Below are positions 7,439 to 21,343 of a stretch of DNA of 64,000 bases, in pieces. Under the pieces are notes generated by a model. The model saw only the letters and a list, made by a program, of their open reading frames with translations, had not been told where the DNA came from and made no database searches. Source of the stretch: Escherichia coli. GTDB taxonomy: Bacteria; Pseudomonadota; Gammaproteobacteria; Enterobacterales; Enterobacteriaceae. The DNA lies in assembly GCF_003334405.1 (NCBI RefSeq), contig NZ_QOWM01000003.1. One strand, written 5' to 3'. A program made the position numbers and the translations under genes. Each line of letters starts with the position of its first letter. The stretch's first letter is position 1.

Positions 7439-7537
7439 AGGTTCTACTTAGCAAAGGTGCTTTAAAAAGTGAAGCGATGTTGTGTCAGCATCCGTTCATT
7501 ATTGTTGTAACAACGACAATTCCTTTCTGTGGAAAAA

Positions 7538-7894
7538 TTAACAAAGCCGCTCCAGATCGTGTGCATATAATTCAGCAGCTACCGATTGATAGATCTTCCA
7601 GTCAATAAAATTGCCATCAGGGTAGACTCGTTGAAATGCGGTTAAGTCGGGGAAAAAACGCATGGTGTTGTTGCCGATGCGGTTATTTATTTTCTCTATG
7701 ATGGCATGAAGATGTTTTTTTCTTTGCTGACGCATAGCCAACAGTTGCTCGACTACACGATCAGGAATGGCACACTTGCCATTTTCCCACTGACGCCAGC
7801 TTTCACTGTCACCGGTCTGGGCAATCCAGGTCGCGCATTCATCAATAGTCATGGCAAAAATATGGCGGAGTGCCTGGAGTTCATAAGCGTTCAT
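7538..7894 (-). CDS. ydiL: uncharacterised protein
   Basis: ORF track 7538..7921; I favour the internal MNAYELQ start (118 aa) from my recollection of the annotated length; function unknown. Confidence 0.6.
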   Translation of the reverse strand: MNAYELQALRHIFAMTIDECATWIAQTGDSESWRQWENGKCAIPDRVVEQLLAMRQQRKKHLHAIIEKINNRIGNNTMRFFPDLTAFQRVYPDGNFIDWKIYQSVAAELYAHDLERLC

Positions 7895-8031
7895 CGTGTA
7901 ATGGCTGCATGAAATAAACAATAAAATATAAATAACATTATCAGCCTGCTGACGGCTTGAAGAGAGTCACAGTATCTTGTGCAACATTATTGGAAAGAGT
8001 GAGGGGCGAGGTAGCGAAGCGGAAAAATGTT

Positions 8032-8137
8032 AAAAAAAAGCCCATCGTGGGAGATGGGCAAAGACTACACACAGCAATTCGTTGTTTCACTCAGGGGATT
8101 TCCATGCTTATAAATCAATATGTTGATTTATAACCGT
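8032..8137 (-). ncRNA. rprA: RprA small regulatory RNA (Hfq-dependent activator of rpoS translation)
   Basis: Minus-strand sequence ACGGTTATAAATCAACATATTGATTTATAAGCATGG...CCCACGATGGGC followed by a T8 run matches my recollection of RprA; lies in the ydiL-ydiK intergenic region. Confidence 0.85.
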
Positions 8138-8322
8138 GAGCTAATAGTAGGCATACGGACTTTTTGCGTCGATCAGATTCGTCTCATTAGTTTAAAAACT
8201 GTAAAGAATTTGCGACAGGTACTACCAGCTGAATGGCGGTAAGCAGGAAAATATGGGGAAGAGCAAGCAAATATCAATTAGCGGTGGTTAACAATCAGGC
8301 GGCAGAGCCGCCTGATGAGAAA

Positions 8323-9435
8323 TTACTTATTCGGTTTCTCGATTTCGCCAAGTTCTTCGAGAATTTCTTCCGGTTGGTCCGTCGGCGGCGGGACTTCTTC
8401 CACCCACGCGGCAAACAGACGCCAGGAAACGGCTAACAGAACCGGACCAATAAACAGACCGATCATCCCGAAAGCAATCAAACCACCAATAACGCCAGAG
8501 AGAATCAGGATCAGCGGTAAATCGGCACCCATGCGAATTAACATTGGGCGGATGACGTTATCCAGCGTGCCAACCACACCGCTCCACACTAACAATACCG
8601 TTCCCCAGGTGGTATCGCCAGTCCAGTAGAGCCAGATAATCGCCGGAATCAGTACCGGCAACGGGCCAAGCTGGACAAGGCAGGAGAGGATCATTAACAC
8701 CGTTAGCAACGTTGCATAAGGTACGCCGGATACGGCGAGGCCGATACCGCCAAGCACTGCCTGTACTAACGCCGTCACCACCACACCCAGCGCCACCGCG
8801 CGGATAGCCTGTGCCGCCAGCAGCACGGCGGCATCTCCGCGAACGCCTGCCAGACGGGTTGCAAAATGGCGAATGCCTTGTGCCACCTGTTCACCGCGCC
8901 AGTACAGCAGGGCACTGAAGAGAAGCATCAGCGCACAATGCACCATAAAGCGCCCGATATGCGCCGCCTGCCCAACGAACCAGGTGGTGGTGGTGCCAAT
9001 ATAAGGGCGGACTTTCGCCATGATCGCCGTCCCCCCCATATCCAGCAAGTTGTGCCAGCCTGCATACAGCTTCGCGCCAATCACCGGAATGGTATTAAGC
9101 CACGCCAGATCGGGTAACGTCATGTCACCGCTGGAAATGGCTTTAATTAGCGGGCCGCTGCCGTCGACGATACTGTTAACCAGCAAAGCAATAGGGATGA
9201 TAAACACCATCACTAATAACAGCGTCATCACCAGAACGGCGAGAGAGCGGCGGCCAAACATGATCTTTTGCAAACGTAACAATACCGGCCAGGTGGCGAT
9301 AACCACCGTACCGGCCCATGCAAAGCCGAGAATAAAGGGTTGAACAATCCACAGACATGCCACAATCATGATGGCTAAAAACAGCACCGAAAGCAGAATT
9401 TGTGCGACATCCCTGGGCTGACGAACATTTACCAT
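8323..9435 (-). CDS. ydiK: AI-2E family (PerM/TqsA-like) inner-membrane transporter
   Basis: 370-aa multi-TM ORF; K-12 synteny. Confidence 0.85.
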   Translation of the reverse strand: MVNVRQPRDVAQILLSVLFLAIMIVACLWIVQPFILGFAWAGTVVIATWPVLLRLQKIMFGRRSLAVLVMTLLLVMVFIIPIALLVNSIVDGSGPLIKAISSGDMTLPDLAWLNTIPVIGAKLYAGWHNLLDMGGTAIMAKVRPYIGTTTTWFVGQAAHIGRFMVHCALMLLFSALLYWRGEQVAQGIRHFATRLAGVRGDAAVLLAAQAIRAVALGVVVTALVQAVLGGIGLAVSGVPYATLLTVLMILSCLVQLGPLPVLIPAIIWLYWTGDTTWGTVLLVWSGVVGTLDNVIRPMLIRMGADLPLILILSGVIGGLIAFGMIGLFIGPVLLAVSWRLFAAWVEEVPPPTDQPEEILEELGEIEKPNK

Positions 9436-13575: not shown

Positions 13576-13769
13576 TCCTGACTTAATGCCGCAAGTTCGC
13601 CAAATCGACCTGGATTAACCTCCGTCCAGGTTCGATGACCTTCTTAATACTGCTTATCTACCGCCTGATATTGTTCAAAAATAATACTAATCGCAGTTTG
13701 TGTTAAAACGGCGGGTTAGCTTTATGAGATTATTCTTATCGCCCCTTCAAGAGCTAAGCCACTGAGAGT

Positions 13770-13843
13770 GCCGGAGATAAGCGCCGGATGGGGTAGAAAC
13801 CCTTAAGCCTGTGTCGCACAGACTTAAGGGTTTTCTTATTTCT
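13770..13843 (+). ncRNA. rydB: candidate small RNA ending in an intrinsic terminator (possibly RydB)
   Basis: Stem cccttaag/cttaaggg (13800-13830) followed by TTTTCTTATTT, preceded by a short ccgg...ccgg hairpin, in the ydiH-sufA intergenic region where RydB is described; the 5' end is a guess. Confidence 0.35.
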
Positions 13844-21100: not shown

Positions 21101-21343
21101 CTAGATTGAGTTAATCTCCATGTAGCGTTACAAGTATTACACAAAGTTTTTTATGTTGAGAATATTTTTTTGATGGGAAGGCACTTATTTTTGATCGTTC
21201 GCTCAAAGAAGCATCGAACGCTGGGTTTTAGATAAAAAAATTGAGAGAAAACAGGATGCTTCCATCGGATTCATCTTAGATAAAGTGAGATTATATAGTG
21301 AAATCCGATTTGATTTTTTATTGCTTCTGGTTATCGATTAAAT

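Follow-up and report, generated by a model that had tools for sequence, protein, structure and literature searches.

The rprA gene for the small RNA RprA between ydiK and ydiL in a 64,000-nt stretch of Escherichia coli DNA

Identity and spread of the rprA locus

The minus strand of positions 8032-8137 is, with near certainty, the rprA gene, encoding the 105-106-nt Hfq-associated small RNA RprA. All positions refer to the window, the whole stretch of 64,000 nt that was analysed. Read from the window, the minus strand of this interval is ACGGTTATAAATCAACATATTGATTTATAAGCATGGAAATCCCCTGAGTGAAACAACGAATTGCTGTGTGTAGTCTTTGCCCATCTCCCACGATGGGCTTTTTTTT. An Rfam 15 scan of the whole window at gathering thresholds returned a match to the RprA family (RF00034) at 8137-8030 on the minus strand (118.5 bits, E = 1.6e-16), covering model positions 1-108 of 108 and compared with a gathering score of 70. 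Moreover, window 8020-8200 (minus strand), comprising promoter, gene and terminator, was 100% identical over 181 nt to positions 1770309-1770489 of E. coli K-12 MG1655, and this identity includes 63 nt of promoter. The curated K-12 ncRNA b4431 (rprA, 1770372-1770477, 106 nt) maps exactly onto 8137-8032, the interval already marked in a preliminary description made from the letters alone. That description had recognised RprA on the minus strand and proposed an alignment to the Rfam family as a check; the full-length match, together with the complete identity to b4431, confirms the recognition. The assignment of the gene to 8032..8137 on the minus strand therefore draws on RF00034, on the identity to b4431 and on RefSeq annotation. 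According to the curated K-12 feature, the primary transcript, of approximately 105-106 nt on the minus strand, would begin with the A at 8137 (+1) and have its 3' end within the run of eight T residues.

Compared with K-12 rprA (b4431), no difference was found in the features tested: the sequence over 181 nt, the length, the position relative to ydiK and ydiL, the RcsB box, the promoter, the 5' hairpin, the central pairing region and the terminator are all the same. Every testable defining feature of RprA was present, namely the model score, identity to the type sequence, synteny, the RcsB box, the terminator and complementarity to rpoS, and the analyses of window 8032-8137 revealed no counter-evidence to this identity. 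For this interval, the computed results are the identity, the family, the anatomy, the conservation of the promoter box, the covariation, the synteny and a complementarity to rpoS that falls where it would be expected. What is said about the transcript, its dependence on RcsB, the part played by Hfq and the effects on targets comes from published work on K-12, whose sequence is identical, and would be expected to apply here by analogy.

The locus is nearly universal in the species. The 1.2 kb around rprA was matched in 5,425 of the 5,426 complete E. coli genomes, and the 108-nt RprA element had an identity of 99% or more in at least 5,422 of them. Where this 1.2-kb stretch was annotated in E. 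coli genomes, the annotation named ydiK, ydiL and 'rprA: antisense sRNA RprA'. Among the best-matching E. coli genomes, four (NZ_CP116925.1, NZ_CP019071.1, NZ_CP116923.1 and NZ_OY754443.1) had the ydiL-rprA-ydiK region split, with the pieces lying approximately 770 bp further apart. The split site was annotated as an IS1-family transposase in three of these four genomes and as a hypothetical protein in the fourth, indicating that IS1 was inserted in this region in the genomes with the annotated transposase. Comparison with the complete E. coli genomes found no such insertion in window 7500-8700 itself.

Beyond E. coli, the exact 19-mer GCTGTGTGTAGTCTTTGCC from the conserved 3' region, which lies inside the 23-nt 3' core described below, was used to scan one genome per species, and exact matches were found in at least 120 stretches of DNA across Enterobacterales. 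Among the matches listed, the genera were Escherichia, Citrobacter, Enterobacter, Pantoea, Erwinia, Pectobacterium, Dickeya, Serratia, Yersinia, Hafnia, Edwardsiella, Proteus, Providencia, Morganella, Photorhabdus, Xenorhabdus and Arsenophonus. Because an exact match was the criterion of collection, the 19-mer is necessarily invariant in this species set. The comparisons of covariation, promoter box and synteny described below span more than 100 Enterobacterales species.

Several other RNA features were found in the window by the same Rfam scan. STnc550 was matched at 40666-41056 on the plus strand (396.5 bits) and rydB at 13741-13801 on the plus strand (81.6 bits), both above their gathering scores, and two tRNA genes lie at 31920-31993 and 32001-32074, both on the minus strand. 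In addition, HPnc0260 was matched at 31793-31955 on the plus strand (112.1 bits), again above the gathering score. At its 3' end this match runs antisense to a tRNA gene, one of the two just named, and it therefore probably reflects the part of the model that is antisense to tRNA and not a real homologue.

Promoter, terminator and neighbouring genes

The rprA promoter was read by eye relative to the curated +1, upstream of which the minus strand runs ...AAACTAATGAGACGAATCTGATCGACGCAAAAAGTCCGTATGCCTACTATTAGCTC. A sigma-70-type core promoter, identical to that of K-12, was read at 8144..8172 on the minus strand; it consists of the -35 hexamer TCGACG at 8172-8167 and, after a 17-bp spacer, the -10 hexamer TACTAT at 8149-8144, with +1 at 8137. 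Abutting the -35 hexamer is the RcsB box TGAGACGAATCTGA at 8173..8186 (minus strand, -49 to -36), which exactly matches the RcsB homodimer pattern TN(G/A)GAN4TC(T/C)NA defined in PMC7913699; RcsB has been crystallised on the Salmonella rprA promoter from -53 to -33, CTATTGAGACGAATCTGATCG (PMC7913699). Each of the two hexamers has only 4 of 6 consensus matches. Because the hexamers are this weak, the automatic promoter scan, with a cut-off of 9 of 12 hexamer matches, did not report the rprA promoter and listed only TTGATA...CATATT at 8277-8250, an unrelated site. Weak hexamers fit an activator-dependent promoter. The Rcs phosphorelay responds to envelope stress, and its output, RcsB in phosphorylated form, would bind the box at -49 to -36 and activate this weak sigma-70 promoter.

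The pattern of the RcsB box occurs three times in the whole window compared with 2.1 times expected by chance, so the count by itself is meaningless, and the evidence lies in the position of the box and its conservation across species. Specifically, a match was present at most 220 nt upstream of the core in 110 of the 114 loci among the matches listed, with the same modal distance as in E. coli, whereas in the control only 3 of 108 equal downstream stretches, again among the matches listed, contained one. The other two exact matches in the window lie at 13725-13738 and 21265-21278, the first of which (TGAGATTATTCTTA) ends 3 nt before the rydB match; with the total at chance level, both may be meaningless.

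At the other end of the gene, a consensus scan of 7850-8400 found a single terminator-like site, on the minus strand. This Rho-independent terminator occupies 8032..8059, with a stem-loop at 8059-8040 and the T8 run at 8039-8032. The stem GCCCATC / GATGGGC has seven pairs, five of them G-C, and a loop of 6, and is followed by TTTTTTTT; the scan thus agrees with the GC hairpin plus U8 ending that had been noticed beforehand. Transcription of rprA would accordingly be predicted to start at 8137 and end at this hairpin and U8 run. As in Hfq-dependent sRNAs generally, we take the terminator to serve also as the 3' Hfq-binding module.

In the RefSeq annotation of an identical locus, ydiK lies at 8323-9435 and ydiL at 7538-7894, both on the minus strand, and the gene order on this strand is ydiK, rprA, ydiL, ydiM and ydiN. 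The siting of RprA between ydiL and ydiK in the preliminary description agrees with this annotation, and the gap there put at about 400 bp measures 428 bp (7895-8322). Across the order, a YdiK homologue was encoded upstream on the same strand in 84 of the 86 Enterobacterales loci with enough flank, among the matches listed. YdiL was found downstream of rprA in only 7 of 103 loci, all of them Escherichia or Citrobacter, among the matches listed. The conserved position of ydiK, together with the conserved RcsB box, indicates that the linkage of ydiK to rprA and the control by Rcs hold across the order. The scarcity of YdiL marks ydiL as a lineage-specific neighbour, and the label 'ydiL-ydiK intergenic region' is likewise lineage-specific.

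A GC-rich hairpin, CAGGCGGC-TCT-GCCGCCTG, was observed at 8296-8314 on the minus strand. It starts 9 nt past the stop codon of ydiK, is not followed by a T-run and may be a terminator or stabiliser of ydiK.

The common strand of ydiK, rprA and ydiL, and the regular occurrence of rprA after ydiK in the species compared, could be read as a sign that rprA is not an independent gene and instead belongs to a neighbouring transcript, either as the 3'UTR or terminator of ydiK or as the 5' leader of ydiL. The lack of a T-run in the ydiK hairpin makes some read-through towards rprA conceivable. However, an exact RcsB box, a -35 and a -10 hexamer are correctly spaced relative to the mapped +1, the box is kept in nearly all of the loci compared, and transcription of rprA is reported to be strictly RcsB-dependent from its own promoter (PMC6298664). 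Moreover, RprA is retained in the many loci where ydiL is not downstream, and its strong terminator is located 137 bp before the ydiL start. The conserved RcsB-box promoter, the terminator and the fact that most species with RprA lack ydiL contradict a neighbouring transcript, which we regard as extremely unlikely, and rprA is best described as a gene with its own promoter and terminator.

RNA structure, sequence variation and partial copies

RprA can be divided into four parts, all on the minus strand. The 5' hairpin (nt 5-30, 8108..8133) has an 11-bp A/U-rich stem, UUAUAAAUCAA / UUGAUUUAUAA, with the loop CAUA. The central region (nt 32-74, 8064..8106) is largely unpaired in predicted folds and holds target-pairing sequences, including the complement of the rpoS leader. 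The conserved 3' core ATTGCTGTGTGTAGTCTTTGCCC (nt 60-82, 8056..8078) forms the start of a processed form that consists of roughly the last 47 nt, and the terminator hairpin described above follows. Both the 105-nt RprA and the processed 60-105 form were detected by Northern blot in K-12, where the sequence is identical (PMC3465796, PMC9262595). The processed form is found alongside full-length RprA and has activity of its own, narP being one example of its targets (PMC9262595).

The 106-nt RNA folds at -25.8 kcal/mol compared with -18.4 +/- 2.95 kcal/mol for dinucleotide shuffles (z = -2.5). Its minimum free energy (MFE) fold consists of the 11-bp 5' hairpin and the terminator hairpin, and the 5' hairpin is also present in the centroid fold. 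The RF00034 consensus differs at this point, with a 5' hairpin of 4 bp and a 13-nt loop, whereas the MFE fold has an 11-bp stem and a 4-nt loop.

Sequence variation among homologues was examined in an alignment of 111 distinct sequences, among the matches listed. In the terminator, 99.2% of the cells were paired, and four of the seven pairs had changed on both sides (CG to UA 16 times; AU to GC or UA 9 times). In the 5' stem, all 11 pairs showed double changes in this alignment, in which the 5' halves of Yersinia, Providencia, Xenorhabdus, Serratia and others align poorly. Because of this poor alignment of distant genera, the covariation of the 5' hairpin was reassessed on a full-length subset of 62 homologues, among the matches listed. 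RNAalifold recovered part of the 5' stem and the terminator from this subset, and one pair of the 5' stem showed the compensatory states UA (38), GU (7), GC (6) and AU (2). In the 111-sequence alignment, the structure given above was 84% paired, compared with 28-51% when the 3' partners were slid by 1-3 columns, and none of 500 shuffles reached its covariation score. The covariation counts are consistent with the 11-bp 5' stem, although RNAalifold recovers only part of it.

This kind of variation also bears on whether the conserved sequence might encode a small protein and not an RNA regulator. Three open reading frames overlap the region mechanically: one of 49 aa at 7941-8090 on the minus strand, one of 58 aa at 7957-8133 on the plus strand and one of 40 aa on the plus strand, the first two being the possible coding sequences for such a protein. 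However, neither of the two RefSeq records inspected for the locus annotates any of the three, and the 49-aa frame begins within RprA and crosses the terminator into poorly conserved DNA. The homologues differ from one another by indels and, in the stems, by compensatory changes of both partners, a pattern of RNA structure and not of codons, and regulation by base pairing has been proven with compensatory mutations (PMC3465796). A coding role is effectively refuted and a small protein is given hardly any weight, and the earlier statement that the interval is not a protein ORF stands; the variation is that expected of the RNA RprA.

In addition to the chromosomal gene, copies of the 3' half only, none of them annotated, turned up when phage and plasmid collections were searched with RprA by BLAST. 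One is located directly after the thymidylate synthase gene of the Erwinia phage Ea9-2, a lytic N4-like member of the Schitoviridae (L125:1501-1544), and another lies near a repressor gene of the Escherichia phage vB_EcoM-606R2 (L124:1501-1546). Two others were found on the 88-kb Enterobacter plasmid pJBIWA008_2 (L126:1501-1556) and on the 89-kb phage-plasmid of E. coli CH468 (L123:3001-3048), which carries packaging, tRNA and Tad2 genes. A second, partial chromosomal copy was observed in Phytobacter massiliensis (L075:1177-1284) on the same contig as the full copy (L074). This copy spans the region from the CCCCTGAGTGAAAC motif to the terminator; its 5' part is unrelated and has no 5' hairpin, and no RcsB box was found upstream of it. 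In the alignment, the 23-mer core (window 8078-8056) was 100% identical in the four phage and plasmid copies and in the second-copy sequence, and in each phage or plasmid copy the core is followed by a terminator of its own, differing in sequence and still self-complementary, and a T-run.

The partial copies correspond to the processed, active form of RprA. One speculative and rather unlikely possibility is that the copies on phages and phage-plasmids imitate processed RprA and in this way feed into the Rcs/RprA regulon of the host or titrate it. The core copies could also be relics of recombination with the host or, in temperate phages, fragments of attachment sites. A literature search for phage-encoded RprA-like RNAs found nothing relevant and no paper describing the partial copies.

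Targets and regulatory role of RprA

The complementarity between RprA and the rpoS leader was computed by scanning RprA nt 30-78 against 36-nt windows of the K-12 leader from -268 to +53. The best duplex joined RprA nt 32-74 with rpoS -128 to -93 at -27.9 kcal/mol, which was only modestly above the controls, 5 of 100 shuffles being equally good. The position of this duplex corresponds to the upstream arm of the inhibitory stem of the leader, the region targeted by DsrA, RprA and ArcZ, all of which are reported to pair there (PMC4152358). The predicted duplex thus agrees with the published target, with modest support, and by itself would not establish a target. An RNAduplex calculation with full-length RprA and a 230-nt rpoS leader gave -55.9 kcal/mol, again equalled by 5 of 100 shuffles, and was rejected, as it represents an unrealistic whole-molecule pairing with huge internal loops.

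Previous work describes RprA as a 105-nt sRNA that is induced through RcsC/RcsD/RcsB and is stabilised and assisted in pairing by Hfq (PMC3465796, PMC4152358); in the literature on the identical K-12 sequence, envelope stress is the inducer, acting via Rcs. csgD and ydaM (dgcM) are repressed by direct pairing, with compensatory mutations as proof (PMC3465796, PMC4152358). The pairing regions of RprA are nt 28-45 and 60-97 for csgD (PMC3465796) and nt 30-70 for narP (PMC9262595), and hdeD and Salmonella ricI are also regulated by RprA (PMC9262595).

By analogy with K-12, the central region of the RNA described here would pair with the rpoS 5' leader, in the upstream arm of its inhibitory stem. 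Such pairing would free the ribosome-binding site, an anti-antisense mode of activation, and shield the mRNA from RNase E. In addition, RprA would repress csgD, ydaM/dgcM, hdeD and narP through base pairing in or close to the regions where their translation starts, and the processed 3' form (approximately the last 47 nt), which contains the highly conserved core, may also be active.

The other two Hfq-dependent sRNAs that activate translation of rpoS, DsrA and ArcZ, act like RprA as anti-antisense RNAs on the same arm of the rpoS leader hairpin (PMC4152358), whereas their sequences are unrelated to RprA and their loci are different. No match to DsrA or ArcZ was found in the window by the Rfam 15 scan. 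The inducing signals also differ: DsrA responds to low temperature, ArcZ is under aerobic/ArcAB control, and RprA responds to envelope stress through Rcs.

The RcsB-activated promoter, RprA and its terminator account for most of the 428-bp gap between ydiK and ydiL, so that no hidden protein gene or new element is required there. RprA at 8032-8137 is an already known and ordinary element, with nothing novel at the locus, and its roles are textbook knowledge, so that its confirmation adds no new biology. RprA connects envelope stress, via Rcs, with both the general stress response (RpoS) and the control of biofilm formation (CsgD and DgcM).
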